Shown: positions 10,884-60,619 of the stretch, in pieces
Position numbering within the stretch: position 1 is the stretch's first letter
How the letters are laid out: each line of letters begins with the position of its first letter
From: a virus
Length of the DNA: 64,000 nt
IMG/VR virus record: IMGVR_UViG_3300038466_000014
Strand: one strand, 5' to 3'
The notes under the pieces: generated by a model
The model's database searches: none
Told to the model about the DNA's origin: nothing
What the model saw: the letters and a program-made list of their open reading frames with translations, nothing else
Program-made: the position numbers and the translations under genes

Positions 10884-10889
10884 TATATT

Positions 10890-11078
10890 CTATCCTAAAA
10901 GAAGTTTACCTTTTGGCATTTCTGTTTCCGCCAGAGTGAGTGTGAGTTCCGAAGCTGCCTCAGCTTTCTTACCACACTTAGGACAACGAAATATTTGATT
11001 TGATTCCGTACCACCGTCAACTCTTTTCATTATATAACCGCAGTTACAAACCATCGCGTTTCCTACTTCATGTGCCAT
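10890..11078 (-). CDS. Small zinc-ribbon protein
   Basis: CNCG...CPKCG. Confidence 0.55.
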   Translation of the reverse strand: MAHEVGNAMVCNCGYIMKRVDGGTESNQIFRCPKCGKKAEAASELTLTLAETEMPKGKLLLG

Positions 11079-11158
11079 TATATACCCCCGAATTGATTTT
11101 GATACGTATAACCCACGAACTTTTATGGATTATACGTATGTTTGTCATTAAATTCAAT

Positions 11159-12400: not shown

Positions 12401-12759
12401 AAAAGTCCCCGATTCTTCTAAGTTTTTTTATTACATATCACAATTATTAAACCAATTGCTATCAATAGTATGACAACTAATGACAATAAAAATCGTATAT
12501 AAAATGTAAATATTAATCCATATATAAATCCCACAATTAAAAAAAATATAATTAATAATTCACCAAAATTGAACATATTATTTTAACATACGACTTTATA
12601 GAGTTTTTCTCCAAGAGCAAATAATGTGGAAATGGCAATAACATCGATTATATTACTTACAAAAAATATTACTATAAATATCTGAAGCGATGTTTTTATA
12701 ACGTCTTTTAACACCTCCAAGAGCTTTTCCACCAACATTTCCTTTCCGGGAATAAGGAT

Positions 12760-14070
12760 TTATTTACCTTTATATCCGACAATAATTTTTACCATTTCTT
12801 TCCACCCGAACGGGTTACCAATTCTCGCATCGATGGACGATTTAAATCCACGGAACGAAAGATCCAATTCTCTGTCGTTTTTGTATAGTTCGAGTATATA
12901 CTGATAAACTTCCTTCTTAATATTCATATCAACTTCAGGAGCTATAAACCGCATAAAATCTTCGATCATTTTTACAACTTCTTCCGTATTAAATTTCACT
13001 TCAAACGTGGGCGCTCTGCTAACCAGCGCCCGGTTAATTTGATCTCTGGTAAGATTGGTAATTATCAATATTTTACCCTTAAACTCAAATTTATCTGGAG
13101 CTTCCGGTTCTTCACCTTCCAATCCCAATCTCATTAACGCTTCTCTTGGAAACGAAATGATTCTTCTTGAATATGAATCAGTAATCGACTTAAGCATGTT
13201 GACCATATTCTCATCACCCAAAGGCGTATCAAAATCGTCGAGAACAAGTATTTTATTTCTGTTCTTATAAAGCAGAGAATACACTTCAGACATTCCTAAA
13301 GCGGAACCCTTGACAATGGTATAATCTTTACCCGGAAGCATATCGTTAAAGTATAAGGTACGTCTTACAATATATGTTTTTGACATACCTGGAGGACCAC
13401 ATATAATAAACGCCGGAGCGTTTCCCTCTATAACATGCTCGATAAAATTAATTGTTCCCGCATAGGCATCAAATACAGGTTCTCTCTTCATCTGGTCTGA
13501 AAACAATGCGTGGTTGATTTTTTGTTCCACGGGACCGGCTACATATTTTTCTTTGGTCCACTTTATAACGGATGCGATCAAATAATACATTTTGGCGATT
13601 GTACCTATACTAAGAAATGTAATAGGCACCCAAAATGGTTTAACCAAATTCATAACCCTACCTTCACTCATTATTTGTTCGGCAATGGTTTTCTTGCCAC
13701 TGTCCGCAACATTAGACTCATTTATCTTTTGTTTCCCCTTGCTCGAAATCTTATATGCCTCTAATAACTCATTAATAAACTTCAATACTTCGTCGTTTGT
13801 TTTATCCGGTTTTATGACATACCCTTCTATTGGAAAACCGGTATAATCTATAGCATCTATAGAATAAAACGACTTAAGTTTTTTATCTTTGTATGTAATG
13901 CGTAAAATTTTTACACCTTCATTTGTATGAAAAAAATATTTAATTCCATATAAGGTTCCATGATTGGCTGTAAATATTTCATCCGCACCGGGTACTTTTA
14001 TAACCTTCTTAACACCATCAAATTTTTTATTTTGTAAATTCAAAAGAAATTCTCTATCTGTTAACTCCAT
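12760..14070 (-). CDS. AAA+ ATPase with uncharacterised N-terminal region
   Basis: Walker A GPPGMSKT, Walker B LVLDDFD, IITN, ALVSR. Confidence 0.8.
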   Translation of the reverse strand: MELTDREFLLNLQNKKFDGVKKVIKVPGADEIFTANHGTLYGIKYFFHTNEGVKILRITYKDKKLKSFYSIDAIDYTGFPIEGYVIKPDKTNDEVLKFINELLEAYKISSKGKQKINESNVADSGKKTIAEQIMSEGRVMNLVKPFWVPITFLSIGTIAKMYYLIASVIKWTKEKYVAGPVEQKINHALFSDQMKREPVFDAYAGTINFIEHVIEGNAPAFIICGPPGMSKTYIVRRTLYFNDMLPGKDYTIVKGSALGMSEVYSLLYKNRNKILVLDDFDTPLGDENMVNMLKSITDSYSRRIISFPREALMRLGLEGEEPEAPDKFEFKGKILIITNLTRDQINRALVSRAPTFEVKFNTEEVVKMIEDFMRFIAPEVDMNIKKEVYQYILELYKNDRELDLSFRGFKSSIDARIGNPFGWKEMVKIIVGYKGK

Positions 14071-14126
14071 TAGTTTTCTTCCTCCACAAAAAAAGAAATT
14101 GTTTACCGTCCAAAACCACTTTGATA

Positions 14127-14144
14127 TTTTATAATTTGTCCTGA
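14127..14144 (-). promoter_or_regulatory. Class B promoter-like motif
   Basis: TCAGGACAAATTATAAAA, identical to 9249-9266. Confidence 0.65.
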
Positions 14145-14145
14145 A

Positions 14146-14640
14146 CTAATATGCGGAATTTATACGCATTTTACTACTTTTATATCTTATATCCCGAGTT
14201 CTGTGAATTTTCTGATTTGCAGTGGCAAGTTCAATACCAAAACATATATTGTTCTTACATTTTTTATGTGTGGAATATTCTCCTGTTTTGATGTAATCAC
14301 ACAATCCGATAATATCGTCCGGAATATCTTGTAGTTCATATCGTGTAAACAACCATACTGGTAAATCAAGAATTTTTAAATCTGAAAGCATTGTTATCAA
14401 ATGTTCTTTCTTTTGATCTAACGGTTCGCCTCCAAATATCATAATATTATGTATAATTGTTCTAAAATTTTGTACTTTTGTAGAAAGTTTATAAAAAAAA
14501 TTAGGGGTGTATAATTCACCCTGGTTAAATGACCAAAGTTCCGGATTATGACAACCCTCACAATGAGGGCCTTTGCATCCGGAAACATATATATCCAAAG
14601 ATCTTCTTTTTAGAGAGAAGTCTGTTGCCACAATGTTCAT
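14146..14640 (-). CDS. nrdG: Anaerobic RNR activating protein (radical SAM)
   Basis: YVSGCKGPHCEGCHNPELW, GGEPLDQ, NQKI; near nrdD. Confidence 0.92.
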   Translation of the reverse strand: MNIVATDFSLKRRSLDIYVSGCKGPHCEGCHNPELWSFNQGELYTPNFFYKLSTKVQNFRTIIHNIMIFGGEPLDQKKEHLITMLSDLKILDLPVWLFTRYELQDIPDDIIGLCDYIKTGEYSTHKKCKNNICFGIELATANQKIHRTRDIRYKSSKMRINSAY

Positions 14641-14691
14641 ACAACCAACCTCCGAAAGTTTTTATTTAAAATCTTTATAAAATCCATATAT

Positions 14692-15072
14692 TCAAATATA
14701 ATTGTTATTAAATGTATGTAAATGATTGGGGGGTCCGATACCATAGATTTTCTTAATATCTATACTTTCCAGATACAGAATTGGAGAACCAATAAATATA
14801 GCTACCCCATTTTTACAAGTATCGAAATAACGAAAAAAACATTCCTCTGATATACCTGCAAGTATTTTAGTTTTTTGCCATAATATTTCTACTGGCTCAT
14901 ATAAAATATCATTTATCAAAAATTCACCTACTATTTTTTTAACCGGAGCACTTGAATAAACCACTATAGATTCAATATCTTTTTTAAATCTTTTTTTCCT
15001 ATATTCAACTTTTTTTACGCCTGAAAAGATCTTGTTTGTATACTCTGGCTTTATCGACATTATTATTCGCAT
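14692..15072 (-). CDS. ASCH-domain protein (probable frameshift in last codons)
   Basis: IMSIKPEYTNKIFSGVKKVEYRK, VYSSAPVKKIVGEF; one more C in the C6 run gives the usual PPQSFTYI* end. Confidence 0.85.
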   Translation of the reverse strand: MRIIMSIKPEYTNKIFSGVKKVEYRKKRFKKDIESIVVYSSAPVKKIVGEFLINDILYEPVEILWQKTKILAGISEECFFRYFDTCKNGVAIFIGSPILYLESIDIKKIYGIGPPNHLHTFNNNYI

Positions 15073-15560
15073 GATTTAAATTCTCTTCTCCCGAATGGGT
15101 GTATATACATACGTTCAAAGTCACAAGACACGGGTCTATTTTTAATCCCATAATATACGAATCCTATTTTTTCAAAAAACGCGATTGTTTTCTTATGTTC
15201 TGGTTGGCGATCGAAAATCGTAAAATATATAGTATCTATGTTGTTATCGAACGCGGTATTAACTATCTCAGATATAATTTCATCTTTTAAATATCTGTAC
15301 GGTTTATCAATTTTAAAACTTCTTATTTTCAATCGTTTATCAGGAGGAAGCACCGGATAAATATCATTATAATCTTCATCCGGACCCTCAATTTTCAAAC
15401 TAATAAACGCCCCGATTTTATCACCAACCGATGTCACATAAGCAATTTCGTTATGATTCTTAATAAACCGGTTTTCGAACTCTGGATATTCAAATTTAAA
15501 GCTGTCAAAAAACACATCTGATATATCTATATCCTTAAAGAGTTTTTGTTCTATAACCAT
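15063..15560 (-). CDS. GNAT-like acetyltransferase of the GNAT-ASCH gene pair
   Basis: FKDIDISDVFFDSF...LKIRSFKI...IYFTIF...FFEKIGFVYYG. Confidence 0.65.
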   Translation of the reverse strand: MVIEQKLFKDIDISDVFFDSFKFEYPEFENRFIKNHNEIAYVTSVGDKIGAFISLKIEGPDEDYNDIYPVLPPDKRLKIRSFKIDKPYRYLKDEIISEIVNTAFDNNIDTIYFTIFDRQPEHKKTIAFFEKIGFVYYGIKNRPVSCDFERMYIHPFGRREFKSCE

Positions 15561-15567
15561 AAACCCT

Positions 15568-17928
15568 TTAGTTTATAGTAATGTCGGAATAGAAATGTCT
15601 GTTTGGATAATCCACCGTTCTTCTTACCTTGCCCCAATTTTTGGTCGATGTTAGAAATCCAACCACACGGGTATAAGAATCTACTATCTCGGCACCACAA
15701 ATGGTACATTTTCCATTTGTACCAACAGTCATGTGCCCGTTTTTGCATCTTTGTATATTATAATTTATAGCGTGATATATAACACCCATCTTTGCGCAGA
15801 TTTTTATCAATTCTTTAATAAGTTCTGGATCTTCTATTCGTTCCCCAACATTGACATGTAAAATACCTCCTCCGGACAAGGACTTGTCGTATAATCCTTG
15901 AAGCCGGATTCTGTCGAGCATATCAGCCTTTACCGTCAATGGAATGAACTGATTCGAATATAATAGATATCCTGTTGGGTTGTATCCCATAATACTGTCT
16001 TTTTCCGCAAGCTTAACGCTTACACTTTCGCCGGGAATCTGTTCCAGATTATGGGCGGATTTATACATTTTTTGCATTTTTTCGACAACATCATTTATAA
16101 TAGTCAAAACATTTGTTACGAATGTTTGACCATTCTCTTCAATAATATTATATCCCATAAGTTCACATGCCTCATTGATACCATTTAATCCAGTAGTAGA
16201 ATACTGTTTTTTCAGATCCATAAATCCGTGGGTATATAATGGTATATTTCCGTTATCGATTCTTTTTTGTAATAGTTGCCGTTTAGCAAAATTAATCTTA
16301 CCGGTAATATATACAAGTTCTGTTAATTGTTCATAGAACTTATCGGCATTTTTTTCACATTTAACAGCAAGCCTCGGAAGATTGATTGTAACCACACCAA
16401 TACTTCCAATTTTAACACTCGACCCGCCAATAGAATTGAAATACTCTGATGTCACGTCAGATCTAAGTCTACAATTATGTGTAATCATTCCAGTAGGTAA
16501 AATGAAATAAGGATTTAACGGATTTTTCATCTCGAAACAATATACAAATTCCGGGTTATCGGGATAATCTTCTATAGATGTGATTTTAATATGTCCATTA
16601 ACCGCAATAATGGTATTTTTATATAATATTTCATCTCCGGGTTTTAACCGAATGGTCTTTTTGTCTCCATCCGGAGTAGGATGAATATGATCCTCAGTCA
16701 CAATTATTTCATTATTATTAGCCATAGTTATCTTGTACATTTTCTTATTATCTTTTGGCACTCTTACTATTCGACCCTCTGAAAACCCGTTTTTAGAAAC
16801 ATGATTTGGAATCATTATTTCTTTATCTTTGTATTTCAAATATAAATTTTCGAATGTGTCTATTTCGTATTTGTTGTCGTATGAGACCCCGGCGGTTTGA
16901 GATTTATGAAAGCAGCACGAGCTAAGAGTGGATGACTTCCCGCAATAAATATTGATAAATCCATACTTTATATTTTTTTCAGAGATCATGGTCAGGAATG
17001 CGTCATCCAATATATTGTTTTCGTCATCTACGACAAAACACGCCGTTGTAACCGGAAACGTAATCGGGGTACGATCCATTTCTTCATTTATCGTGTCTAT
17101 AAATAACTCTTGCAGTGCCATAACGATATCGATATTCGGATATTCTCCAGTTTCCGGACTAAGGTATGCGCCGTCCTTAAACATTGCTTCCAAGAACGGC
17201 CTGTCGAATAATGAGATATTTGTGAATGGACTCTGATTGCCACCGCGTTGTGGTTGATTTAAAGTATATATGAATGAAATAAGGGTTTCTTTCACATATC
17301 TCCAGCAATCTTCCTCTGTCATAAATTTAAATCCTGCGTCAGATTTAGTCTTAAGTATTTTTTCCACATAATGAGCCATCACAATAAGGGTATCCGCCAC
17401 TCCAGAGGCGCCCAGAATGGAATTTGCGGCTATAACAATAAACTGTTCCAGTTGGGACTTAAATGCGTATAGATGTTTTGGGGCTATAGATACGATCTTC
17501 CGTATCATTGGTAACCCCATAAGCATGATATCATATGTGGAAAAATTAAAACAATAGCTCGTTCCGACATTATGAAAATCATGAATATAAATGTCACCGG
17601 AAACCTGCATTTCTATAATGCGGTTCGCTTCCAAGTGGCCGAAGATCTTCTTAAGCTTTTTCCATAATAAGTAGTATGAGTTGAACCTGAAGAACGGTTT
17701 TGGTAGTTCCACGTTATACGCAATAATATCTCTCGAATCCACGTTGGCATTGGAATCCACACTGATATCCGCAGTAGTATTTATATTACTCATAAATTCT
17801 TTACTAAAATTATTCATATCCAATTGTTTTCCTATCCCCTCTATATCAAGAATTTTAGACCCATATTTGGCTTTTAGAAACATCATGAGTTCGTCAAATT
17901 CTCTGTCGTAACTTACATTAAAATACAC
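15568..17928 (-). CDS. nrdD: Class III anaerobic ribonucleotide reductase, intein-containing
   Basis: IYIHD, QSPFTNISLFD, TFPVTT, SSC|CRL, GSIGVVTINLPR, EQIPGE, CxxxH..CxxCG, YTRVVGF glycyl-radical loop. Confidence 0.95.
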   Translation of the reverse strand: MYFNVSYDREFDELMMFLKAKYGSKILDIEGIGKQLDMNNFSKEFMSNINTTADISVDSNANVDSRDIIAYNVELPKPFFRFNSYYLLWKKLKKIFGHLEANRIIEMQVSGDIYIHDFHNVGTSYCFNFSTYDIMLMGLPMIRKIVSIAPKHLYAFKSQLEQFIVIAANSILGASGVADTLIVMAHYVEKILKTKSDAGFKFMTEEDCWRYVKETLISFIYTLNQPQRGGNQSPFTNISLFDRPFLEAMFKDGAYLSPETGEYPNIDIVMALQELFIDTINEEMDRTPITFPVTTACFVVDDENNILDDAFLTMISEKNIKYGFINIYCGKSSTLSSCCFHKSQTAGVSYDNKYEIDTFENLYLKYKDKEIMIPNHVSKNGFSEGRIVRVPKDNKKMYKITMANNNEIIVTEDHIHPTPDGDKKTIRLKPGDEILYKNTIIAVNGHIKITSIEDYPDNPEFVYCFEMKNPLNPYFILPTGMITHNCRLRSDVTSEYFNSIGGSSVKIGSIGVVTINLPRLAVKCEKNADKFYEQLTELVYITGKINFAKRQLLQKRIDNGNIPLYTHGFMDLKKQYSTTGLNGINEACELMGYNIIEENGQTFVTNVLTIINDVVEKMQKMYKSAHNLEQIPGESVSVKLAEKDSIMGYNPTGYLLYSNQFIPLTVKADMLDRIRLQGLYDKSLSGGGILHVNVGERIEDPELIKELIKICAKMGVIYHAINYNIQRCKNGHMTVGTNGKCTICGAEIVDSYTRVVGFLTSTKNWGKVRRTVDYPNRHFYSDITIN
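16474..16914 (-). mobile_element. Mini-intein (147 aa, no homing endonuclease) in NrdD
   Basis: Starts CFHKSQ, block B VTEDHIH, block F VYCFEM, ends ITHN followed by Cys; removal restores SSCCRL. Confidence 0.92.
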
Positions 17929-18464
17929 GCTTCCTCCAATATGTATAAAGGTTCATATTGTTCACAAATATCCGCGATCGATTCCTGTGTTATATTCTGA
18001 TCTGGTTTTCCTTTAACAAGCAGCCAGTTTGTTTGTTTGTGCCATTGTTTATAATTATTGTCGGAATCTTTTCTTACCGATTGTTTATTATTATCCGGAG
18101 ATTTCTGAAATAAAATCAACGCATATTTACCATTCAAAATTGGACCAGATACTTTGAAGGTTATAAAATTTGAAGACCACGCCATAAGTTCCGCTCTGCC
18201 CTTCTGTACTACTTCTACGGTTCCGGCTCCTTTTTCACCAGCAGGAATAGTTCCAGAAAATTCTCCCCAATATAACGGATGATCGGTTGTCCTTATAGCC
18301 AGAGATCTTTCTCCGGGGGTTTTAGGAACTCTAAGTTTCGGTAGTGCCCATGAAGCATATGAGTTTTTATAAGGATATTGAAGTCTTAAATCATAATGCA
18401 TACCTGCTCTTTTAGCATCATGTTTTTGTATTACATAATCTATTACTCTTGTTTTCTGTTCCAT
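17913..18464 (-). CDS. Stand-alone LigD-type 3'-phosphoesterase (PE) domain
   Basis: YVIQKHDA...HYDLRL...SWALPK...LAIRTTDHPLYWGEFSGTIP.GEKGAGTV...WLLVK. Confidence 0.9.
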   Translation of the reverse strand: MEQKTRVIDYVIQKHDAKRAGMHYDLRLQYPYKNSYASWALPKLRVPKTPGERSLAIRTTDHPLYWGEFSGTIPAGEKGAGTVEVVQKGRAELMAWSSNFITFKVSGPILNGKYALILFQKSPDNNKQSVRKDSDNNYKQWHKQTNWLLVKGKPDQNITQESIADICEQYEPLYILEEACILM

Positions 18465-19009
18465 TCTTTTAATTCCTTAATTATAGAGATAAAAATTTTC
18501 CTATCCGATTGTACTACGTCAGATAGGAAAAAAATATACATATATAAATCCGGGACGATCAATCTAATATTTATATTTAATTTGTTTATAATTAAGTTGC
18601 CAAGTTCCGAATGGCAGTGAAATAATACGGGTTTATTATTTTGACGTGTAATTAAAATAGGATGTCTGTTTACGTCGGAAGCTCTCCGTAGGTGGATATT
18701 CCACCAACCCGTTATATTATTACCGGTCATTTCAGGATATAAAATTGACCATATATTAATATCTTTGTAATGTTTAAATTCAAATATACATTTATTTATT
18801 AATAATTTCCCCTCTGGATCGATTGACGCCATATCTCCACAATGGTTTTCAGAAGGTTCCCCTTTCTTGTTTTTGGTTGTCGAATATCCTCCTGAATTAA
18901 TACTTCTCCAGAAGATGTCTTTTTTTTCTTCTCCGGTTATAAACCTTGAAAACTCCCTGCATATTTTCCTCTCGAAAGAATTACCTTTCGATTTACCATT
19001 TATAGTCAT
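18443..19009 (-). CDS. Holliday junction resolvase, Hjc-like PD-(D/E)XK
   Basis: NGKSKGNSFERKIC...SGG...GDM...IFEFKHY. Confidence 0.75.
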   Translation of the reverse strand: MTINGKSKGNSFERKICREFSRFITGEEKKDIFWRSINSGGYSTTKNKKGEPSENHCGDMASIDPEGKLLINKCIFEFKHYKDINIWSILYPEMTGNNITGWWNIHLRRASDVNRHPILITRQNNKPVLFHCHSELGNLIINKLNINIRLIVPDLYMYIFFLSDVVQSDRKIFISIIKELKEWNRKQE

Positions 19010-19073
19010 TTATAATTTGTCCTTTACCCTAACCACATCAACACCCAAAAAGATACGATAACCGAAAATTTAT

Positions 19074-19798
19074 TTAGAGGATGATATTCTCAAAAATGTA
19101 GTTATCAAGTATTCCGCAAAATACATCCAATTGATTTCTATTTTTTACTGTTCATCCAAATATAACATTATGGGTAAATCTTGACAGATATGGAAGATTA
19201 CAATCATCTATACAAAAACATAAAGCGTCTGGAAAAGATAAATTATAAATCTTTTGATAAATTTTATAAAACATATTCTTATTTGTAATAGGAGCCGCAC
19301 AATGCAAAATAATCGGTCTTCCGGTCTCGTTCCTTAGTATCTTTAATTCCCGTGGGTCAAATGACATAAAAACTATTCGCCCTTTATAATCCCTTGTAGC
19401 TTTTACTAACTCACGGATAAAAACTTTTCTATTAAATATTCCACTCTTTAAATCAATAAACAACGGAACCCGATCGTTTACCATTTGTAAAACACTGGAC
19501 AGAATTGGTATATTATATGACGAATTACGCAACTTAAATTGTTTTATATCTCTATAAACGGACCGGGATATCTTTAGGCCGGAATTACATATTCTTTTTT
19601 AAGAGTTGTCGTGATGTACTACAAATATTTTATCTTTAGTCAATCTAATATCAATCTCCACAGCATACCCATTTGATATTGCTGACGATATAGATCCTAT
19701 AGAATTCTCAGGAATTATTTTATTCCATAGCCCCCGGTGCGCTACAGAGGAGCATCCAATAAAAACGATGCAGGTTTTAATTTAGTATTATCATTCAT
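19074..19798 (-). pseudogene. Glycerophosphodiester phosphodiesterase, disrupted
   Basis: VAHRGL...PENS...VEIDIRLTKD...HHD; 2-nt frameshift near 19745; TGA at 19152-19154 in FG*TV (normally WTV). Confidence 0.8.
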
Positions 19799-20530
19799 TT
19801 ATGTGCTCATAAAGACCCCCGGAATAGATGCTTCTCTAAGTCTTTCTATAGTTTCCCTCCGGAGTTCATTACCGTCATTTTTAAGCATGTCTCCCTGCAA
19901 TGGAATATCTCCAAATGGTGTGGATATCTGTCCTTGTCCGTAATGTGTCCGTATAGTTCCAATCCAAATCATAATTTCGGCGAGCGCAAGATCCATAAAA
20001 TCTCTCTCGTGTTCCCCAGGTATCTTTCTCAAATCGTGTGGCTGTCCTCTTTCGTATTCAACAACAAACATTTGATCTATAGTTGGTAAAATACGTACAT
20101 AGTTTGGGCGTATAAACTTTCCAGTATATCCCCACGCGGAAAAAGGCCGTAACATATTTGACTGTAAAGATTTAATAGCCATCTGCGCAACTTCAGAACC
20201 TTGGGCACAGCTTCCACCTATACTAAACGCTGGCCATATGGGATTTCCGGTCGCAAAGTAGCTACTGTCACTGAAATAGTAGTTTCTTACCCCAAGTATG
20301 GATAGATCCTCGGAATCAAAAAACTTATAAATATTCTTTTGATCTGTTATATGGCTTGGATTTGTAGGATACACAACGGCCCAATCTATATCCGGAAAAT
20401 AATCTGAAAACGTTCTTAACGCGGTAGTTATAATATATCTTTTTAATTCCGCATCGGTAGCCTCCACATAACTGCTTGGAAGGGCAATTCTTCTTTTGAC
20501 ATAATATAATACTTCGTCCCAATTCAACAT
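19799..20530 (-). CDS. Putative neck/head-completion protein
   Basis: ALRTFSDYFP...DLALAE...IRTHYG...TPFGDIPL pattern seen in large-phage neck proteins. Confidence 0.45.
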   Translation of the reverse strand: MLNWDEVLYYVKRRIALPSSYVEATDAELKRYIITTALRTFSDYFPDIDWAVVYPTNPSHITDQKNIYKFFDSEDLSILGVRNYYFSDSSYFATGNPIWPAFSIGGSCAQGSEVAQMAIKSLQSNMLRPFSAWGYTGKFIRPNYVRILPTIDQMFVVEYERGQPHDLRKIPGEHERDFMDLALAEIMIWIGTIRTHYGQGQISTPFGDIPLQGDMLKNDGNELRRETIERLREASIPGVFMST

Positions 20531-20559
20531 ATTTATATTCTCTCCTGGAGAGGGTTGCT

Positions 20560-21708
20560 TTAGAATAAAAATTGAATATCGTATTCCCGTAACACAAAAT
20601 CATTAATAAATCCAACACATTCCATTAATGTTTTAGTATCGGAAAACATTATTTCTTTTTTAGAAATTGTACTATCAATATAATTTATCCATGGTTTTTG
20701 GTGATACTTACAAGCACGTTCCAACCAATACACAAGACACTCATAAGAAATAAGCTTAATCGATTTCCTAATTAATTCTTCATTGTTTATTATTTTCAAG
20801 AGATCTTTATTTTCCGTATCGGTGTTTTGATTGGTAAACAACGGAGCGTCTCCAAATATATTCTTTATAATATTGTCATACTCTAAATCACTAATCACAC
20901 TTGTATCCAACAATTTTAAGCATTTCTTAGGCCCTATACCATGTACTCCTGGAACATCATCAATTTTATCTCCACTGATCGCCATCATAATAGTCAGCAA
21001 TAAAGGATTTATATCTGTAGTCAAATCATAATTTACGCTAAAGTATTTTTTTAGAGCTTCTGTATAATTCAATAAAGTATTATTTTTCCCATAACTATAA
21101 TACTGAAAAATATTTTGGTTGTTTAATATTTGGTACATATCTTTATCGTTACTACAGATAAGGTGCATTATATGACCCGAATCTTTAAAAAACTTATTTA
21201 TGATATAATATGGTATAAAATCCGATTCGAGATTCGAAAGGTTAATCATATAATAATTATCCATCTTATTTAAAATATTTTCAAGTATTACAAAATTGTC
21301 ATTTCGTATTTCCCGAATTTGTTCATCTAAATATCCGTGTATGGTAGAACCTCTTTTATTTATAGATCTGCTCTGTTTGTAATCCGGGTGTACAGATGTG
21401 TGATATATAGATGTTCCGTAATCGGTAAATAAAAAAATTTTATATTTCTTATTGTGGGATTTTAAATACTTGGACCAGTTCGCAACGTATTTGAGGATTG
21501 ATTGAAAAATAGATGTGTCTGTGGATTCGTTGACCTTCGTATTATATTTTATTTCTCCGATAGTCTGTTCGTTAAACATTGATGTGAATATATTTTTCAG
21601 ATCTAAATAAATATAAATCTCATCATATCTATGTATGTATGTCTTTAACAAATTATCTATAGATGGTTGATAAAACTTTAATAAATTCGTATTTGGAGGA
21701 TTAACCAT
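20560..21708 (-). CDS. 5'-3' exonuclease / flap endonuclease (T4 RNase H-like)
   Basis: YKQSR, LESDFI, SNDKDMYQ, GDKIDDVPGVHGIGPK. Confidence 0.9.
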   Translation of the reverse strand: MVNPPNTNLLKFYQPSIDNLLKTYIHRYDEIYIYLDLKNIFTSMFNEQTIGEIKYNTKVNESTDTSIFQSILKYVANWSKYLKSHNKKYKIFLFTDYGTSIYHTSVHPDYKQSRSINKRGSTIHGYLDEQIREIRNDNFVILENILNKMDNYYMINLSNLESDFIPYYIINKFFKDSGHIMHLICSNDKDMYQILNNQNIFQYYSYGKNNTLLNYTEALKKYFSVNYDLTTDINPLLLTIMMAISGDKIDDVPGVHGIGPKKCLKLLDTSVISDLEYDNIIKNIFGDAPLFTNQNTDTENKDLLKIINNEELIRKSIKLISYECLVYWLERACKYHQKPWINYIDSTISKKEIMFSDTKTLMECVGFINDFVLREYDIQFLF

Positions 21709-23843: not shown

Positions 23844-24206
23844 TTACAATTTGTCCCAACCGGAGTCAACTTCTACATCCACTTTTTTTACAGTAACACT
23901 ATTATTTTTCAACTCATTGATTTTAATCGCCGTATCATTTATAATTGTCGAAATCTCTTTTTGTGTCTGTACATCGACATCTTTTAGATCCTCTATTTTA
24001 GTCGTTACCTGGACCTTCTCCGCCTGAATCGACTGAATCTTATTATCGGTTTCTTTATTAAAAACCTTATGCAAAACAGTTTTTTCTATAAAATCTTTTG
24101 TCCCTGTTGTATTCTTTCTAAATAAAAAAAAGGCGGTTCCGGCAATTCCTAATACGGATCCTAATGTTAAGATAAAAGGTAAATATTTATATAAAGTTTC
24201 AACCAT
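23844..24206 (-). CDS. Membrane-anchored coiled-coil protein
   Basis: N-terminal TM helix then heptad region; GAGGAT RBS. Confidence 0.5.
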   Translation of the reverse strand: MVETLYKYLPFILTLGSVLGIAGTAFFLFRKNTTGTKDFIEKTVLHKVFNKETDNKIQSIQAEKVQVTTKIEDLKDVDVQTQKEISTIINDTAIKINELKNNSVTVKKVDVEVDSGWDKL

Positions 24207-24245
24207 TTAAAATTATCCTCCTATTCTGTAGTATAATGAGTTTAA

Positions 24246-24563
24246 CTACATTAAATCAAATGTATCATAATCATCTGTTTGCTTCTTGTTTTTCATCTTG
24301 ATCATTTTCTCAATCTTCATCGCGGCAAGTGTCGGGGTAATAACCGATATTAACAATGTAGTCACCGCCTGAATTACTTCTATACACAAATCGAAGAATT
24401 CTGTGCTTTCAGTCAGTAAATTGATATTGTCTAAAATAATATTATCTACTACCCAGAATACAAACCAAAACGTGGCCACGGTGATCCAAAAAGATCTGCT
24501 GACACACGTTTCTATAATTTTTTTACCAACCAAACTCCAAAATTTTTTAGAAAAAAATTTCAT
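24246..24563 (-). CDS. Two-TM membrane protein (holin-like)
   Basis: MKFFSKKFW start with GGAGGG RBS; SRSFW plus two hydrophobic segments. Confidence 0.4.
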   Translation of the reverse strand: MKFFSKKFWSLVGKKIIETCVSRSFWITVATFWFVFWVVDNIILDNINLLTESTEFFDLCIEVIQAVTTLLISVITPTLAAMKIEKMIKMKNKKQTDDYDTFDLM

Positions 24564-24718
24564 TGGATTCCCTCCGGGAAACGGACCCCGCCCGGACACG
24601 GCGCATCCGCTCTTAGGGCGGGGTCCTATACTTTCCACACGGCACCGGACGCAGCGCGTCCGGGTTTCCTCCTCTGCCCCCTGGCCCTGGGGGGCGGTGG
24701 GTTGTTTGATTGAAAATT

Positions 24719-25591
24719 TTATCTCATTCCCCGACCCCGCATGTCATACTGGGTCGTAGGTATGTCATACGGCTCCGGAGACACCGAAAGCCGCACTTCA
24801 TACCCCGCGTAATTTGCGACAAACGGATACTTTGTCGCAATTCTTGACCTCTCGCGCCCTATCCTCTGGTAGAGCGCCCAACCATCAGCGTCCTCGCGGA
24901 GGAATGTTCTCTCCAGAATCTTCCTATCCCTCCACGGAATTCCGGGAGTGATGAGTTCATTTTGGATGTTCCCTACTCGCCTCCTCCTCTGAACGCTCCT
25001 GCGCCACAACATGTGCTGTGCCGAGGCGATGTCCGCCGCGATAAAATAATCGCGGCGGACATTACGGAGCGCAGTGCGCACTTCGCGCATTTTTCGCGGG
25101 TGTGTCGCCGCGAGCACTGCCTCGCGGACCGTTTTTTCTCCGGTCCTACCGGCAGCGGAGAGCGCCCAGTCAGCCCTGGTAGCGATCTCCATCGCTTTTT
25201 CACGGGCTTTTCGCCCCGGAATCTCCATTGCGGCGCTTTTGAGCCGCAATGCATCTTCACGCAACGCTTTGAAGACCGGCACTTGTCGCGACGCCTGCCA
25301 CGGCGTCGCGACAAGTGTGAGGGTGTCGGCCTTCAGTTCTAAAAAAGCCTGGAGGCGTTCGTCTCCGGGGAACGCCTCGTACCACGCTGGGAGGGCTAGG
25401 TGCGCGTATAAGACGCACACCATTGGATTAGACTCTTTCATAGTTTCTCCTTCGCCTTTGCGGGTTGTGGTAGCCGACCTTGGACCAAGGTCAATCCCGC
25501 AGGTAGGGTTGTGAAATACAAAAGTGCTCCCGGTTTCCCAGGAGCACCCGCAATCCAGGCAGGTCACCGTTATGGTACGCAACAACACCAC
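24719..25591 (-). CDS. Hypothetical protein in GC-rich insert (start uncertain, perhaps 25441)
   Basis: Long ORF; AAGGAG precedes internal MKESNP. Confidence 0.4.
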   Translation of the reverse strand: MVLLRTITVTCLDCGCSWETGSTFVFHNPTCGIDLGPRSATTTRKGEGETMKESNPMVCVLYAHLALPAWYEAFPGDERLQAFLELKADTLTLVATPWQASRQVPVFKALREDALRLKSAAMEIPGRKAREKAMEIATRADWALSAAGRTGEKTVREAVLAATHPRKMREVRTALRNVRRDYFIAADIASAQHMLWRRSVQRRRRVGNIQNELITPGIPWRDRKILERTFLREDADGWALYQRIGRERSRIATKYPFVANYAGYEVRLSVSPEPYDIPTTQYDMRGRGMR

Positions 25592-26051
25592 GCCGCTGCT
25601 AAATCCATGCGCTCAGATGGATGCGGTATTTCGTACCGCATCATCCTTTTGAATAGGGCGAAATTTTCTCCGGTTAAGGAGAAAGCTGCCCCACTCACCG
25701 CTACGCGGGAAAGGAGGTTTTTAGTGTCGCCGATTGCACCGGCGACATTTAACTTTATCACAGAATCATCGTCCTTTATGAGGACGATTTTATTTTCTTG
25801 CGGTGATAATATTATATCACCTGCTTTTGTGTTCAGCTCAATTACGACTTCTTCGGCCGCAGCCTTCCAGGCCGCTCCGTCGGAAGCCAACCATCGGCCT
25901 TTTCCGAGGTTCGAGAAGAGCCGCTGGCTCCTCATCGGCCCCCCGAGAGGCCCAATTCCCACTTTCAACTCGGCGTGCAAGAGAAACTGCGCCAAGGTCA
26001 ATGTATTCTGGATGGTCATATCCGTTTGGCTCTCACAACCACAACACGTCT

Positions 26052-33738: not shown

Positions 33739-36315
33739 CTATTCATTTTCTACATTTTCATCCAATGTTAAATCAATTCCTTTATCGATCAGCCAGTCTC
33801 CCATCTGAATGAATATAGAATCGGTATCTGTATACAAAAGATACTTTATTAATTTCTCTTTATACCCTTCGGCAAATTCAGGATCAAAGTTTATCTCATT
33901 TGTCTTCATATACTCAGAAACATGATATCCGAGAAACTTAATTACTTCCTGTCCGGTAAGAGTAATAGACATTGCCAAATCATAGTTAAAGAATCTGAAT
34001 CCGGAATTTGCCAATACTCCATATAGGGCATTAGCCAAAATTTTATAAGCTGTTTGAATATTGTTATAATATTTCTCTTGTTCTTTCTCTTTACTTTTAA
34101 CATATACCTTCATCATATCTTTATATGTAGTACGCGAATCCATCAGATATTTCAGAATACTGTAAAGAAATGATAGCTCCTCATCATGACCTTTATATAT
34201 ACATCCGTTTATGGTTATAATATAATTATTGTCTATAATCCATTTTTCAAATTCATTATATGTAAATTGTTTTTCAATCATATTGTATAAAGGATCTAAA
34301 TATACTATAAAGTTATCTTTGTATCTGGATTGAATTTTATGTATAAAGTAATATGCCACATCTGTATCTACTTTCGCTACAAATGTATTTGGGCCTATGT
34401 TACAGCTTCTGACAATAGACGGATATAGAGACGTAAAGTCAAAGTCTATAACCCATTTATGAATTCCTGGTATTGGTTTTCTCACCACTGCTCCAGGAAT
34501 CTTAAACTTTTCTCCGATCTTAGGTCTGTTTCTGCATACACAATTTGAATTTTTGGCGTAAGACAACACCAGAGGATCCAGCAATCCAGTAGTGGTTTCT
34601 GCGGATCCCCAAGATGACGCGCAAATACGAATCAATTCATATTGTAACGATATATGTCCAAGTTTCTTGTCCAGTTCGTATAGAAGATCTGTATCGGTCT
34701 GCGAGTATTCCACGAACTTATGTATATCCTGTTCATATACGTGATCCAAGGTTCCTTCATAGGCAACTTTATCTTTTGATATATTTACTTTGGCTATGTG
34801 GGATAATTTATATGTGGGTTCTTTTCCCTGAGCAAATTTCTTATATAAAAACATCATATCCGGTATAGCTATTCCCGCTATATATGCCTTTTTAATATTG
34901 TTTATATCAAAACTCGCTCTTCCGACAGGAGAAATCTCGTTGAATGATATATGATTCTTTCGCATCCGCATAAACAAGGTTGGTATATCGAATGTAGATG
35001 TATTCCATCCTGTCAATATATCGGGCAATTCCGATTTCAATACTTTTATAAAATATAATATTAATTCTTTTTCAGTATCGAAAATTTTAACATCTTTATT
35101 ATCTAAAGATACCCCTGAATTTTTTATAACCCCTATGTCGTATATCAGCACCTGTGTAGGAGTATCTCCCATTTTATAAGATATGGCGTTTATCGGCGCA
35201 AGAGCGGTTTCCGGTCTGGGAAATGATTTTTTATGATCGTTCCACACCTCCATATCCCAATACATAGTCTTAAGATTGTAATTCTTTTCTGATAAATTTC
35301 TGAGAGTTTTCTGATAAAAATAGTCTATGGAATGTCTAAGATTTTTTTGCACATCGAATTCATATACTCCTACCTCATCACTTGGTTTTGTATCGAACCG
35401 GACAACGGCGTTTTCAACTTTTTCGACAATATCTGAAAAATCGAATGGTTTCTTTCCCTCGTAAAAATATCCATGATCACTCGATAATAAGTAAAACTTT
35501 TTTTCTTTTGTTTTAGCATTAACAAATGTGAAACAAATCTCTCTGGTCGCCTTTAAATTTTGACAGTCAATATATATCATATCGGGATCAAACATCCATT
35601 CCGGATAATTGAAATAAGTTATTGAATTATTTACTATAGAGTCCGGGGATTTATATTGCATTATATATTTAACGGCACTCTTAAAATCATTTAGAAATGA
35701 TTGATAGTCCTTTGTAAGTTTGCCATCAGTAGTTCTTATACCGCCATTTCGTTTCACGTAGGATGGGTGTGTCGTAATCATCACATCTCTTCCTTCAAAC
35801 TTATGGATCGTCCCCCCTTCCTGTGTTATCTTTTTAACGGATATACCAAGGGCTTTTGCTGAAGAATTACCCATGGCTAAAATCAATTTAGGATTGGTTA
35901 TTTTTATAATCTCAAGAAGATTGTTTCTGCAAAATGTATACGCCTCCTCTGGAGGATTTGCAGTGATCCATTTTTTTCCTTTTTTAGATAAGTTCGAACA
36001 TAAACATACATTGGATATGAATAGATTCAATTTACTCATTCCTGATTCAGTTTCCGCCGATCTGTATATGCTTCCGGCTCCTCCGATCAAAGGTCTTCCG
36101 GATTGCACTTCCTCATAGGCTGGAGCTTCTCCAAGGACCAGAATGTCTATATCTCTAATATACTCTCTATTACATTCTCCAGGAACTATCGGTTGTTTAT
36201 ATAAAGGACAATCGAAACAATTGGTAAATGGGGACTTCGGATTACTAATATTTCCCTCCTTTATAAAACAATTAAAATTTGAAAATCCTGTCAGATCTTG
36301 GCACCAGTCCAACAT
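33739..36315 (-). CDS. polB: Split family B DNA polymerase, large subunit: family-4 UDG + 3'-5' exonuclease + palm/fingers (true start possibly ATT at 36249)
   Basis: CFDCPL, GEAP, SNVCLC, HPSY (UDG4); WDMEV, GWNTSTFDIP, YSQTD (exo); DFDFTSLYPS, KILANALYG, YTDTDS. Confidence 0.93.
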   Translation of the reverse strand: MLDWCQDLTGFSNFNCFIKEGNISNPKSPFTNCFDCPLYKQPIVPGECNREYIRDIDILVLGEAPAYEEVQSGRPLIGGAGSIYRSAETESGMSKLNLFISNVCLCSNLSKKGKKWITANPPEEAYTFCRNNLLEIIKITNPKLILAMGNSSAKALGISVKKITQEGGTIHKFEGRDVMITTHPSYVKRNGGIRTTDGKLTKDYQSFLNDFKSAVKYIMQYKSPDSIVNNSITYFNYPEWMFDPDMIYIDCQNLKATREICFTFVNAKTKEKKFYLLSSDHGYFYEGKKPFDFSDIVEKVENAVVRFDTKPSDEVGVYEFDVQKNLRHSIDYFYQKTLRNLSEKNYNLKTMYWDMEVWNDHKKSFPRPETALAPINAISYKMGDTPTQVLIYDIGVIKNSGVSLDNKDVKIFDTEKELILYFIKVLKSELPDILTGWNTSTFDIPTLFMRMRKNHISFNEISPVGRASFDINNIKKAYIAGIAIPDMMFLYKKFAQGKEPTYKLSHIAKVNISKDKVAYEGTLDHVYEQDIHKFVEYSQTDTDLLYELDKKLGHISLQYELIRICASSWGSAETTTGLLDPLVLSYAKNSNCVCRNRPKIGEKFKIPGAVVRKPIPGIHKWVIDFDFTSLYPSIVRSCNIGPNTFVAKVDTDVAYYFIHKIQSRYKDNFIVYLDPLYNMIEKQFTYNEFEKWIIDNNYIITINGCIYKGHDEELSFLYSILKYLMDSRTTYKDMMKVYVKSKEKEQEKYYNNIQTAYKILANALYGVLANSGFRFFNYDLAMSITLTGQEVIKFLGYHVSEYMKTNEINFDPEFAEGYKEKLIKYLLYTDTDSIFIQMGDWLIDKGIDLTLDENVENE

Positions 36316-37060
36316 CCTCAGACAGCGGTTTTAAGAAATTGGATATACGTATATCCCAGGAAAATTCAATCATCTTATCAATATCTATTATGTAATAACT
36401 CGGAAGAAATTCCTCTTCGTATGGCATAGCAATAGCATTTCCAATTTTAATTCCTTCATCTATTAATTTCTTAATCCTGTCAGGAGATTTCATATAGTTA
36501 ATACCCTCAATATTAAACATATATCCTTTAGTACCTTGTTCGAAATATGGATATTCCAGTTTATTCCATAATTTCATACTTCTAATATGCATCGTCTGTG
36601 TTTTGTACTCATCATCATTTTTATTAAAATGGACAGGACGGGCAGCCTTCTTACTTCCTTCCAAAATACCAGTGATAAGTATTTCACGAGAGTCTGTTAT
36701 GAATTTAGCAATCTTTTTAAAATCTATATAGTATTCTCTAACAAGCATATCGAGTAACATAGACAATCTTTCTTTAGTAAATTCGGGATAATCCGATCTC
36801 CTAACCTCAATACCTTTATTCTCCATTTTATCCACAGGATCTTTTTCTTTATTTATGATGTGCAACGAATATTTCTTTCCCACTCCTGGGAAATATCCGG
36901 TATCTGCGACTAATTCCTGTTTGGCGTCAAAAAGATTGAACTTATCTTTGATATTATGTTTTCTGCCAAACTCCAGCGCTATAGGTACAATCGCGTTGGC
37001 TTTTATATTTTCAGCCTCTTTTAAAATAAGCGCAACGAGGTCTTCTTTTTTGATGCTCAT
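36272..37060 (-). CDS. Split family B DNA polymerase, C-terminal (thumb) subunit
   Basis: KQELVA...KKYSL, KGIEVRRSDYP: motifs that normally follow YxDTDS. Confidence 0.88.
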   Translation of the reverse strand: MSIKKEDLVALILKEAENIKANAIVPIALEFGRKHNIKDKFNLFDAKQELVADTGYFPGVGKKYSLHIINKEKDPVDKMENKGIEVRRSDYPEFTKERLSMLLDMLVREYYIDFKKIAKFITDSREILITGILEGSKKAARPVHFNKNDDEYKTQTMHIRSMKLWNKLEYPYFEQGTKGYMFNIEGINYMKSPDRIKKLIDEGIKIGNAIAMPYEEEFLPSYYIIDIDKMIEFSWDIRISNFLKPLSEDVGLVPRSDRIFKF

Positions 37061-38050
37061 CGGGCACCGCCCGATGATTCCAGTTGAACCGCCTTTTCGG
37101 AACTCTGGTTTGGCGGACCACCAATAGACCGCACGGCTGAAACACTGTGTCCAACCGTTTGCTCATAGAGAAACCACCCATTGGCAGAAACATTAAAGGC
37201 CGCGTTTGAGTCTCTATGGTCAAAGTGAGAACATGAACATTTGTAGTTCTTTCCGTTTGGTTTGTTGATACTTCCGCACCTTGAGCAAACCTGACTTGTA
37301 TAAGCAGGATTTACGAAGAAGATTGGTATGCCAAGCAAAGATGCTTTGTATTTGATAAAGGTTTCCAAAGCAAAACGATGTGATTTGGCATAGTCAACAA
37401 CGGAACGACTCACTTTATGATTGATATCTTTAACTCTGTTTGACTGTTTACTTCTGATTTTCTTTAAAGCATCTTTAGCACCTTTCTTTTGTAAGTTCTT
37501 TCTTCTATTGCGGAAACTTTTAGTTATTCCAGACACATCTGGACCTAACTTCCTAACCTTTCCAGACATAACATCCGCACAAACCACAACATTCTCCACA
37601 CTGTTTCTATCAACTCCAAGAAATCCTTGAATTTTCTGTTCTTGTAAAACAGGAGTGTTGTAAGAGTAGGATATAAACCATTGCCCATTTCTTTTGAAAA
37701 ACTCTGCCTGTCTAATAAAACCAGAAATGGTTTTAGGAAATACAACAGGCAAAATAGATTTTTTGAAGAAGGCTGGGATTCGAATACCACCATCTACAAT
37801 CTTTACTTGTTTTCCTTTATCACCGCAAACAGGTAAAACAAGATTTTTGACCTGCTTGATCTTTTTGTTTCTCTGATATTTAGAAATAAGACTTTTAGCA
37901 AGAACACAAGGTATCTCTTTGTAATATTTAGAAGAAGATTTAGTTCTGTCTTCTATCATTCTGTTTACACAAACAGAAGCTTTTTGGTATAACTCGTCCA
38001 AAATAGGAGTAAGATTGTGAGGTATAACGACCTTAAAAGTAAGACACATT
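37057..38050 (-). CDS. tnpB: TnpB RNA-guided nuclease homolog with RuvC-II segment missing (ORF track extends to 38127)
   Basis: FLGVDRN, NHKVSR, YKA, VNPAYTSQVCSRCG, DHRDSNAAFNV; no LEDL region. Confidence 0.9.
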
Positions 38051-38415
38051 GTAAGTTCTTTCTCGTATACCATGTTGTGTTTGTAACCAAGTTTCGCTAT
38101 AAAATTTTCCATCAACACATTCTCCAAGATTTGATTTTAACTCTTCCAGAAATGGCTAAACAAATGTCTGTAAATATTTCTGAAATAAACGGTGAAGAAG
38201 ACCACATACATTTTCTTTTGGAAACAACACCACAAGACAATCTTGGTGGTGTTATAGGGGCACTAAAAGCACGGTCTTCTTCGTATCTACACGACAAATA
38301 TATCTTTCCATATTTGGGAAAACATTCCAGAACTCTTTGGTCTTCTGGGTATTTTATAGTATCCACTGGCGGTGCTCCTTTAGATGTTATTAAAAAGTAT
38401 ATCCAAAACCAATAA
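38017..38415 (+). CDS. tnpA: IS200-type HUH Y1 transposase
   Basis: YHVVFVTKFR, EEDHIHFL, LWSSGYF, IKKYIQNQ. Confidence 0.95.
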   Translation: MRYNDLKSKTHCKFFLVYHVVFVTKFRYKIFHQHILQDLILTLPEMAKQMSVNISEINGEEDHIHFLLETTPQDNLGGVIGALKARSSSYLHDKYIFPYLGKHSRTLWSSGYFIVSTGGAPLDVIKKYIQNQ

Positions 38416-38488
38416 TAAGTATTAAATCCTACTTGTCAAGAGCCTAACCCCGAACACCGTTCGGGGATTGCGGCTCTAATACTGTTGA

Positions 38489-51375: not shown

Positions 51376-51511
51376 TGAATACCTCCCGATGATTCCGGTC
51401 TGGAGATCTCCGGCCTTTCGGCGTGAGTTCCAGCGTTAATGATCAATTTAATCCTCCTTGTTTACAGAGCCTAACCCCGAACACCGTTCGGGGATTGCGG
51501 CTCTAATACTG
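51365..51511 (-). mobile_element. 147-bp non-autonomous IS605 derivative (PATE/MITE-like)
   Basis: 48 nt identical between 51466-51513 and 38439-38486; right end GGAATCATCGGGAGGTATTCAATGAACATCAA resembles GGAATCATCGGGCGGTGCCCGATGAGCATCAA. Confidence 0.88.
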
Positions 51512-51825
51512 TTCATATAATCGCGCCCATATAAATTTGATTTTTTATTTAAAATGGCACACACAAATTCTATTAATCTGTATTTCGCGATAGAAATATC
51601 TCCGGTAGTTATAATATAAGGATTACCAGCATTATCCAAATATACTTTGTCGAGAAAAATATCTAAAATTATTTCCTCTTCTTTCAATCTTTTATATTTA
51701 TCAACAATCGTATATTTTACTTTAATATTTTCCTCGGTTAACATCTCTTGTTTATATAATCCTTGAGTAATTTTAAAATCTGTATCTATTAGTTCGACCG
51801 AATGTGGCTTTGTAATATTATTCAT
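51448..51825 (-). CDS. Hypothetical protein; N-terminal part of the split gene
   Basis: Last 21 aa and stop are encoded by the element left end. Confidence 0.6.
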   Translation of the reverse strand: MNNITKPHSVELIDTDFKITQGLYKQEMLTEENIKVKYTIVDKYKRLKEEEIILDIFLDKVYLDNAGNPYIITTGDISIAKYRLIEFVCAILNKKSNLYGRDYMNSIRAAIPERCSGLGSVNKED

Positions 51826-58325: not shown

Positions 58326-58994
58326 TCACCCCTTGTATGTATACAATAAATTAATTATTTCTAATGGTGTATCCGTAGAAAGGTTGCTGATTACCGAATC
58401 TGGTTTGACCCCATAATCAAGTAGAATTTCTATAATTTCTATTTGTCCATTAATTACGGCGCTTATAAGCGCCTGTTCTCCGCTTAATTCCAAATCCACT
58501 CCACACTCAATCATCTTTTTTAATAACTTCGGATATCCAAGACCGGAAGCTAATCTCAATGGATACCCGGATCTCGCGTTTATGTTTGCGCCGGATTTGA
58601 TAAATAAATCAAATAATTTAAAATCCGATATATGGACAGCATAAATAATAGGATAATCATCGGATATATGTACATCCGCGCCATCTTCAAGAAGTTCTGT
58701 AATAGTTTCAGTATTCATAATTCTTCTATTTTTCAAAGTTATTGATGCTATCCGCGCATCGGTAAATTCTGCAATACTCATATCCGGATATATATTTAAA
58801 TGTTCATCTCCAACACTCTTCACATCATAAATATATTCTCTTGTGAACAGCCGGAGTCCAGAAAGCACATTCAGATTATTAAATAATTTCAATTCTTTAA
58901 AAGGGATTGGATATGGTATTTTGTTTATACCAGACTTAAACCGAGGTGTGTTATCGTATTGATTTTTAGATTTCGTTAGTTTGTAAAACTTCAT
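58326..58994 (-). CDS. Ankyrin-repeat protein
   Basis: LLEDGADVH, GANINA, PLRLAS, ALISAVINGQIEIIEILLDYG. Confidence 0.85.
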   Translation of the reverse strand: MKFYKLTKSKNQYDNTPRFKSGINKIPYPIPFKELKLFNNLNVLSGLRLFTREYIYDVKSVGDEHLNIYPDMSIAEFTDARIASITLKNRRIMNTETITELLEDGADVHISDDYPIIYAVHISDFKLFDLFIKSGANINARSGYPLRLASGLGYPKLLKKMIECGVDLELSGEQALISAVINGQIEIIEILLDYGVKPDSVISNLSTDTPLEIINLLYTYKG

Positions 58995-59793: not shown

Positions 59794-59912
59794 TGTGAAA
59801 AAGGAACCTTTCGCTGTTGGGTTGTATTTTACTGCTGATATACTAACAAAATTATTAATCTTTAATAAAAATCAACTTGTTTTTAACAAGGTTCGTATTT
59901 CAACTTTATCTC

Positions 59913-60592: not shown

Positions 60593-60619
60593 TTAAACTG
60601 CCGAAATAATAAAATTTGT

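Follow-up and report, generated by a model that had tools for sequence, protein, structure and literature searches.

Split family B DNA polymerases (PolBs), split PolBs whose genes lie out of order (phiKZ gp50/gp82), and uracil-DNA glycosylases (UDGs) fused to phage family A polymerases (PolAs) are already known. The locus described here lies in IMG/VR virus record IMGVR_UViG_3300038466_000014, of which one stretch of 64,000 nucleotides, hereafter the window, was analysed. At this locus, the predicted T4-type replicative DNA polymerase of a large uncultured phage is split over two genes, the one for the thumb piece coming first, and the larger product begins with a family-4 UDG domain. As far as sequence comparison and structure prediction indicate, the locus likely encodes a replicative T4-type PolB that is made of two non-covalently assembled chains, the larger of which carries a probably active UDG.

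Among the closest described systems are the Aeromonas phages 25 and 44RR, in which, according to the part of PMC2988022 that cites Petrov et al. 2006, a T4-type PolB is encoded by two genes whose products, gp43A and gp43B, associate without splicing. That account also places a GIY-YIG homing endonuclease at the break, and a similar situation is seen here in the relatives L008 and L092, which keep the canonical gene order and have GIY-YIG-like open reading frames (ORFs) in the gap. The Aeromonas genes are presented there in canonical order and without a UDG, whereas the locus in the window has a reversed order and a UDG. The Aeromonas break also falls more than 100 residues earlier: the 43B-like profile phrog_1918 matches residues 738-842 of the large chain at its profile positions 23-116, with the onset of the match at about residue 715-738, while the chain in the window is broken after residue ~845. 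The polymerase of phiKZ, a chimallivirus, is likewise a PolB of two stably associated chains, DNAP-N (gp82) and DNAP-C (gp50), and their complex has been reconstituted and solved (bioRxiv 10.64898/2026.09.30.755723). By gene number, the phiKZ gene for the C-terminal chain also comes before that for the N-terminal one (gp50 before gp82). It differs in lacking a UDG and in being split within a palm insertion between motifs A and C, such that the two chains share the active site, whereas here one chain has all of motifs A, B and C, only the KxY motif and the thumb are separate, and the two genes are adjacent.

Two archaeal PolBs are also encoded by two genes in the passages of PMC2677866 devoted to them. 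The chains of the Methanothermobacter thermautotrophicus enzyme (Kelman et al. 1999) form a non-covalent complex, while those of Nanoarchaeum equitans (Choi et al. 2006) are joined by protein trans-splicing, which is excluded here; in both cases, as presented in that source, the genes are unlinked and there is no UDG. As to the glycosylase, phages SPO1, SP-10, SP-15 and N4-like phages have a family-4 UDG at the N-terminus of their replicase (PMC10201439; PDB 9qhs), and both active-looking and inactivated versions of it occur in different lineages (PMC10201439), as they do in the family described below. Since that polymerase belongs to family A and the present one to family B, the UDG-PolB fusion arose independently of UDG-PolA. 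In poxviruses, a viral PolB (E9) is physically coupled to a UDG (D4), but the relevant parts of PMC5682278 and PMC4889955 describe a non-covalent coupling via A20 and a family 1 enzyme, in contrast to the family-4 iron-sulfur (Fe-S) UDG found here in the same chain. Three aspects appear to be undescribed in the sources searched: that a large metagenomic family has a family-4 UDG joined to a T4-type PolB, that the break sets apart no more than the KxY strand and the thumb, and that the placement of this thumb gene directly upstream is conserved.

Organization of the two polymerase genes

Both ORFs were confirmed on the minus strand, in different frames (Table 1). The large chain contains, in this order, the UDG, the PolB N-terminal domain, the exonuclease, and the palm and fingers through motif C. 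In Pfam searches, the 858-aa (amino acid) ORF matches UDG at residues 55-192 (E-value 5.7e-15), the PolB exonuclease at 325-507 (1.1e-17) and PolB at 582-840 (8.6e-31). On PHROG 262, a T4-type polymerase profile of 856 positions, the large ORF matches positions 91-589 (5.3e-99) and the small one positions 598-823. Because they abut on the profile, the two ORFs follow on from each other as parts of one polymerase, with their order in the genome reversed.

The exonuclease residues ExoI D354/E356, ExoII N438/F442/D443 and ExoIII Y537/D541 are invariant in an alignment with 15 relatives. Motif A (DFDFTSLYPS), motif B (KILANALYG; K758/N762/Y765/G766) and motif C (YTDTDS, 33817-33834) are all on the large chain, and their residues form invariant alignment columns among the relatives. 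The small chain contributes the last palm segment with KKY (K62-K63-Y64; 36869-36877), the KGIEVRRSD motif (36791-36817) and the thumb; K62, R88/S89/D90 and other residues are invariant among its homologues. Large-chain residues 605-845 align with residues 390-635 of RB69 gp43, and the profile of the small chain aligns with residues 576-681 of KOD polymerase. By the first of these alignments, the break falls at about residue 640-650 of RB69 gp43, within the palm and between motif C and KKRY. The C-terminus of the small chains is a hydrophobic-x-x-aromatic tail (here ...IFKF), which resembles the clamp-binding C-terminal tail of gp43. All the parts that define the T4-like (gp43) group of PolBs, namely the exonuclease, motifs A, B and C, KxY and the thumb, are thus found, the last two on a separate chain; what sets the polymerase apart from that group is that it is not a single polypeptide, its C-terminal part being encoded in a second, upstream ORF. 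A first-pass annotation made from the nucleotide letters had placed the UDG (four Cys, GEAP, HPSY), exonuclease and palm motifs in the large ORF, with a stop about 20 aa past YTDTDS, and had located KKY and KGIEVRRSD in a separate upstream gene; all these motifs were found where it put them, and the distance to the stop was measured as 25 aa.

Unsplit relatives show how little is missing at the break. Large-chain residues 27-842 align with residues 5-818 of the 1,078-aa protein P0003 (33% identity, 4e-134), and residues 854-1070 of the same protein align with small-chain residues 35-248 (38% identity, 2e-48). In the closest unsplit relative, P0034, the end of the N-terminal alignment and the start of the C-terminal one are 8 residues apart, so no intein-sized sequence is missing. 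Beyond their homology to unsplit relatives, the large piece has only ~13 extra residues and the small piece only ~6, neither ORF matches an intein or Hint family of Pfam at E<=0.1, and the intein halves that flank the break of a split-intein polymerase are not found in this one. Eight stand-alone homologues of the small chain have 263-270 aa and 38-50% identity to it. Those that could be placed on a contig all lie close to a truncated UDG-PolB gene, and the pairing of a separate thumb gene with a truncated UDG-PolB recurs in independent assemblies from many samples. The claims that the gene is split and not frameshifted, that its missing C-terminal part is a separate upstream gene, and that no intein lies at the split were borne out.

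Table 1. Features of the split polymerase locus, with positions in the window
Feature	Position	Strand	Remarks
Large subunit gene	33739..36315	(-)	858 aa from ATG 36315; 836 aa if ATT 36249 used
Small subunit gene	36272..37060	(-)	262 aa; adjoins large gene upstream
Family-4 UDG domain	35716..36237	(-)	residues ~27-200; PF03167
3'-5' exonuclease domain	34636..35343	(-)	residues ~325-560; PF03104
Palm and fingers	33796..34572	(-)	residues ~582-840; PF00136
Gene junction	36247..36315	(-)	small-subunit stop TAA 36272-36274; AAAGGAGGG 36254-36262; in-frame ATT 36247-36249; alternative ATG 36313-36315
Putative IS200/IS605-type element, tnpB only	37050..38484	(-)	approximate ends; tnpB 37057-38127; at 5' end of small-subunit gene

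The start codons of both genes are unusual. A start of the large subunit at the ATG at 36315 would make it overlap the small ORF by 44 nucleotides (nt). The in-frame ATT at 36249 lies 5 nt past the GGAGG of AAAGGAGGG, would leave a 22-nt gap in place of the overlap, and matches the start position of the relatives, whose large chains start 5-8 residues ahead of the CxxC motif and 8-41 nt past the small-subunit stop, with ATG or GTG at the position of the ATT. The ATT appears to be the better-placed start. The small-subunit gene is adjoined at its 5' end by a putative insertion sequence (IS) of the IS200/IS605 type, with hairpins at both termini and a tnpB product that matches PF07282 (Cas12f1-like TNB domain, 2e-18). 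A 51-nt copy of the left end of the element, 98% identical, is found 13 kb away at 51466-51516, and an Rfam scan of the window gave zero matches, hence no match to an omega-RNA model. The right end of the element provides the ATG of the small gene, which overlaps the tnpB stop as ATGA, and the empty site reconstructed in silico (about 38485/37049) holds no in-frame ATG, GTG or TTG, only GGAGG, 4 nt and then ATC. In both polymerase genes, a non-canonical start, ATT in the large one and, before the insertion, ATC in the small one, seems to have stood behind a strong Shine-Dalgarno sequence. The IS does not explain the reversed gene order, because relatives with the same order are without it. If its TnpB works like those of known elements, the guide would be the first bases of the polymerase gene and the element would act in a homing-like manner there. 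A 356-aa ORF beside the thumb gene of L008, of the same length as the tnpB product, was compared with it and proved to be unrelated.

Relatives of the fused polymerase and their gene order

An exhaustive profile search recovered dozens of 50%-identity clusters of the UDG-PolB family, which take several forms: truncated large chains, mostly of ~810-860 aa, unsplit UDG-PolBs of ~1,070-1,126 aa, intein-bearing proteins, and proteins with an extra N-terminal region of ~170-200 aa. Alignment-based scans of IMG/VR recovered ~35 loci with an unsplit UDG-PolB, on contigs of up to 312 kb; single-sequence scans of the same database gave no match to the small piece and, with the large one, reached only distant polymerases. 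At a few IMG/VR loci (L020/L066, L069/L070), the UDG is a gene of its own, a few kb upstream of an ordinary PolB, which may be the arrangement that preceded the fusion. The metagenome-contig scan returned a single locus, and the genome-contig scan only mis-binned phage contigs, with no clue to a host. The huge-phage record LR756508 was tried as a relative and set aside, its polymerase being only distant and differently organised. No UDG-PolB fusion is present among 50,697 GenBank phage records, since none of them covers more than 73% of the large chain, and literature searches turned up UDG-PolA work only; this absence applies to the collections and literature searched and is no proof that the fusion was never described. 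The view of the first-pass annotation that the combination looks uncommon has to be given up, as UDG-PolB is widespread in uncultured large phages and common in metagenomes, and the reversed order, a trait of the clade, occurs in 12 lineages.

The extra N-terminal region lies ahead of the UDG in numerous unsplit UDG-PolBs, among them P0089, P0091, P0104-P0114, P0128 and P0129, has no Pfam match, and is also found ahead of the UDG in stand-alone UDG genes upstream of ordinary PolBs (L020:617-1642; L069:976-1977). Inteins (Intein_splicing, LAGLIDADG, Hint) are present in the exonuclease or polymerase regions of P0036, P0079 and P0077, and large inserts in P0037 and P0068. On the sequences at hand, inteins, free-standing homing endonucleases and TnpB make a hot spot of the UDG-PolB family.

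Where the break lies just after motif C, the gene order was readable in 15 lineages, and in 12 of them the thumb gene is upstream on the same strand (this window, L006/L007, L009, L010, L011, L012, L013/L014, L016, L025, L027, L106 and the P0029 contig). The spacing in these lineages ranges from an 8-nt gap to 2.4 kb with up to five unrelated ORFs. The other three, L008, L023 and L105, have the canonical order: in L008 a 422-aa ORF with weak SegE/GIY-YIG similarity lies between the pieces, in L023 they are separated by a 2.8-kb gap, and in L105 the genes abut as TAAATG. A different break, ~40 residues earlier and before motif C, is found in canonical order in L015/L017 (= L052/L056), where the genes overlap by 30 nt; it is a second, independent break of UDG-PolB. 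Proteins with this earlier break are P0071, P0088, P0093, P0100, P0124 and P0145. T4-like polymerases without a UDG can also be broken near motif C, in canonical order, as in L086, L091 and L092, the last of which has a GIY-YIG/NUMOD-like ORF in the gap.

In trees of the exonuclease-palm region that these proteins share, every form with its break after motif C belongs to one clade (99% SH-aLRT). A subclade with 96-97% support holds every unsplit protein of the clade together with the canonical-order loci L023 and L105, and all reversed-order loci are outside it; the position of L008 is unstable. The history of the locus could then have had three steps. The ancestor would already have had the UDG-PolB fusion; the fused gene would next have been broken in association with a homing endonuclease, a selfish-element insertion being pointed to as the cause because canonical-order relatives carry homing-endonuclease-like ORFs in the gap; and one or a few rearrangements would have put the thumb gene first, an order kept in most of the clade.

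Probable assembly of the two chains, the UDG and alternative readings

The two-chain PolB that the first-pass annotation had put forward is the best reading of the locus, given that both pieces are conserved across the clade and that the predicted interface rebuilds the palm. The large chain would run from the family-4 Fe-S UDG through the N-terminal domain and the proofreading exonuclease to the palm and fingers, where motifs A, B and C lie, and the small chain would add the last palm strand, on which the primer-contacting KxY motif lies, all of the thumb, and a tail of the clamp-tethering type. The N-terminal ~65 residues of the small chain are predicted to dock on the motif A strand and the motif C hairpin, completing the palm. 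Prediction of the complex gave an ipSAE of 0.72 (three runs, 0.72-0.73), a mark that 58 of 80 solved complexes and 2 of 110 mismatched pairs also reached, while none of the three controls scored above 0.01. At least 88% of contacts are common to the runs, partner pLDDT is at least 83, and the predicted contacts join small-chain residues 2-66 to large-chain residues 611-639 (motif A strand), 787-810 (helices) and 827-852 (motif C hairpin). Moreover, neither piece varies in its catalytic residues among relatives at 32-50% identity, which argues for purifying selection on a working enzyme. There are also biochemical precedents for such an assembly: gp43A and gp43B of Aeromonas phage 25 co-purify and polymerise, as stated in the section of PMC2988022 on that phage, and the two-gene PolB of phiKZ is a stable, active 1:1 complex (bioRxiv 10.64898/2026.09.30.755723). 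The Methanothermobacter enzyme, which functions as a non-covalent complex (PMC2677866), is a third.

The UDG domain has C33/C36/C106/C129, which are putative ligands of a 4Fe-4S cluster, as well as GEAPA, Asn102 and HPSY. It aligns with the Thermotoga family-4 UDG TM0511 (1vk2, 6.5e-16) with all four Cys in register, and also with PDB 1l9g and 1ui0, the matches being Thermotoga and Thermus family-4 UDGs. Of 82 aligned family members, about 66-71, the window among them, retain the (A/G)E(A/N)P motif, Asn102, HPS and the four Cys, the count for the active-site motifs being about 66. The UDG is most likely catalytically active, a reading favoured because by far the greater part of the family conserves these motifs and Cys, and it would remove uracil from the template or nascent strand of the DNA handled by the polymerase. 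The first-pass annotation had proposed that the domain would couple uracil or modified-base scanning to replication.

Several observations weigh against this picture of an assembled enzyme with an active UDG and the history outlined above. The predicted complex may pass because PolBs have been solved often as single chains and are remembered by the model, so that the score shows likeness to those structures and is no proof of binding. The reconstructed empty site predicts that in this window the small-subunit gene lost its native start to the IS, and translation of the large subunit may begin at ATT, for which reasons the expression of both chains in this particular genome is an assumption. 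In the UDG, the uracil-stacking Phe of characterised family-4 enzymes is Leu in most members, here too (Leu76), and one reversed-order subclade (L010, L016 and relatives) is without the UDG motifs altogether, which implies that UDG activity is dispensable for the polymerase. As for the history, the backbone of the clade is unresolved in the tree; we infer the split first and the reordering later as the simplest scenario, and a re-fusion, or repeated breaking at one site, is an equally open alternative.

The UDG could also be non-enzymatic here, a structural or processivity module that holds DNA, as has been proposed for the N4-type UDG-PolA and as the excerpts of PMC5682278 and PMC4889955 on the D4 UDG in the poxvirus E9 polymerase holoenzyme describe. 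Inactive UDG domains are documented on phage PolA (PMC10201439), the change of the stacking Phe to Leu would fit such a role, and the split polymerases without the Cys and active-site motifs still keep an N-terminal region. This region, of ~130-240 aa and with no Pfam UDG match, is found in L010:1654-3987 and L016/L028:6626-8968 and in P0058, P0062, P0087 and P0050. Retention of the motifs and four Cys in the large majority of members would be unexpected for a purely structural module, and we regard this role as unlikely. It is similarly doubtful that the reversed order is adaptive instead of being a neutral rearrangement and, jointly, that the UDG provides built-in uracil surveillance. In such a case, the thumb subunit, made first from the same operon, would capture the incomplete palm as the large chain leaves the ribosome, and the function of the fused UDG would resemble that of the read-ahead uracil pocket in archaeal PolBs or that of a second editing mode.

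Apart from these questions of function, the assembled two-chain enzyme has to be set against readings in which the two genes do not form such an enzyme at all. That the ORFs are remnants of a decaying polymerase gene, with another polymerase replicating the genome, would be in keeping with the IS on the start of the small gene, with the lack of a clearly canonical, well-placed start for either gene in this window, and with the fact that the stretch inspected is 64 kb of a 180-kb contig. This is highly improbable, as both ORFs are full length, have no internal stops and keep every catalytic residue, no other polymerase was found among the ORFs scanned in those 64 kb, and many independent lineages have kept the two-gene layout at 38-50% protein identity, which requires purifying selection. 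Even less probable is the formation of one polypeptide after all, by split-intein trans-splicing, recoding or rearrangement at the RNA level. A split-intein PolB is known in N. equitans (in the passage of PMC2677866 referred to above), and inteins occur elsewhere in the UDG-PolB family (P0036, P0079, P0077), but the lack of any intein or Hint match on either ORF and the few residues beyond the homology to unsplit relatives argue against it; in addition, one to five unrelated ORFs separate the two genes in many relatives, and readthrough would yield a permuted protein with the thumb first and no normal polymerase.

An assembly artefact (a mis-join or collapsed repeat) is the least probable of all, for although the contig is metagenomic and the only public run found has short fragments that do not bridge the junction, the same order is seen in at least 11 other lineages from different samples and pipelines (ENA, Logan, JGI, IMG/VR), and the closely spaced ORFs have no repeat where they meet. 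That run is a groundwater metagenome with a 0.09 share of words and fragments of ~150-210 nt at 85-98% identity, which are no evidence either way on assembly or expression; the public-read search listed no RNA datasets holding the sequence.

Genomic surroundings and implications

Elsewhere in the window (9290-21708 and 58326-62208) are genes for a UvsX-like recombinase, PhoH, a clamp-loader-like protein, NrdD, a LigD-type 3'-phosphoesterase, a PDDEXK nuclease, an Mre11-like phosphoesterase, an N6/N4 DNA methylase, an ankyrin-repeat protein and an Rv2179c-like exoribonuclease; no tRNA genes were found in the 64 kb. A 2-kb stretch at 24000-26000 has 50% G+C, compared with about 33-37% for the genome, and contains overlapping long ORFs on both strands, including a 290-aa ORF with no Pfam match. 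Near the polymerase of the UDG-PolB relatives L003/L004, L005, L105 and L106 are QueC and radical-SAM genes, a dCMP deaminase and thymidylate synthase or Thy1, as well as Cpn10, ribosomal protein S21 and peptide deformylase. The neighbouring genes of these relatives hint at modified-base metabolism in the group.

The separable thumb, with its clamp-tether, may be of interest to polymerase engineers. With the parallels of UDG-PolA and the poxvirus holoenzyme, UDG-PolB would mean that uracil handling was joined to the replicases of viruses on at least three separate occasions. A natural series is available in a single family, and it runs from a separate UDG to the fused form, the split form in canonical order, the split form in reversed order and a degraded UDG. 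Such a series would be useful for understanding how broken essential multidomain enzymes are tolerated, how selfish elements (homing endonucleases, inteins, and TnpB) drive such breaks, and how gene order relates to subunit assembly.

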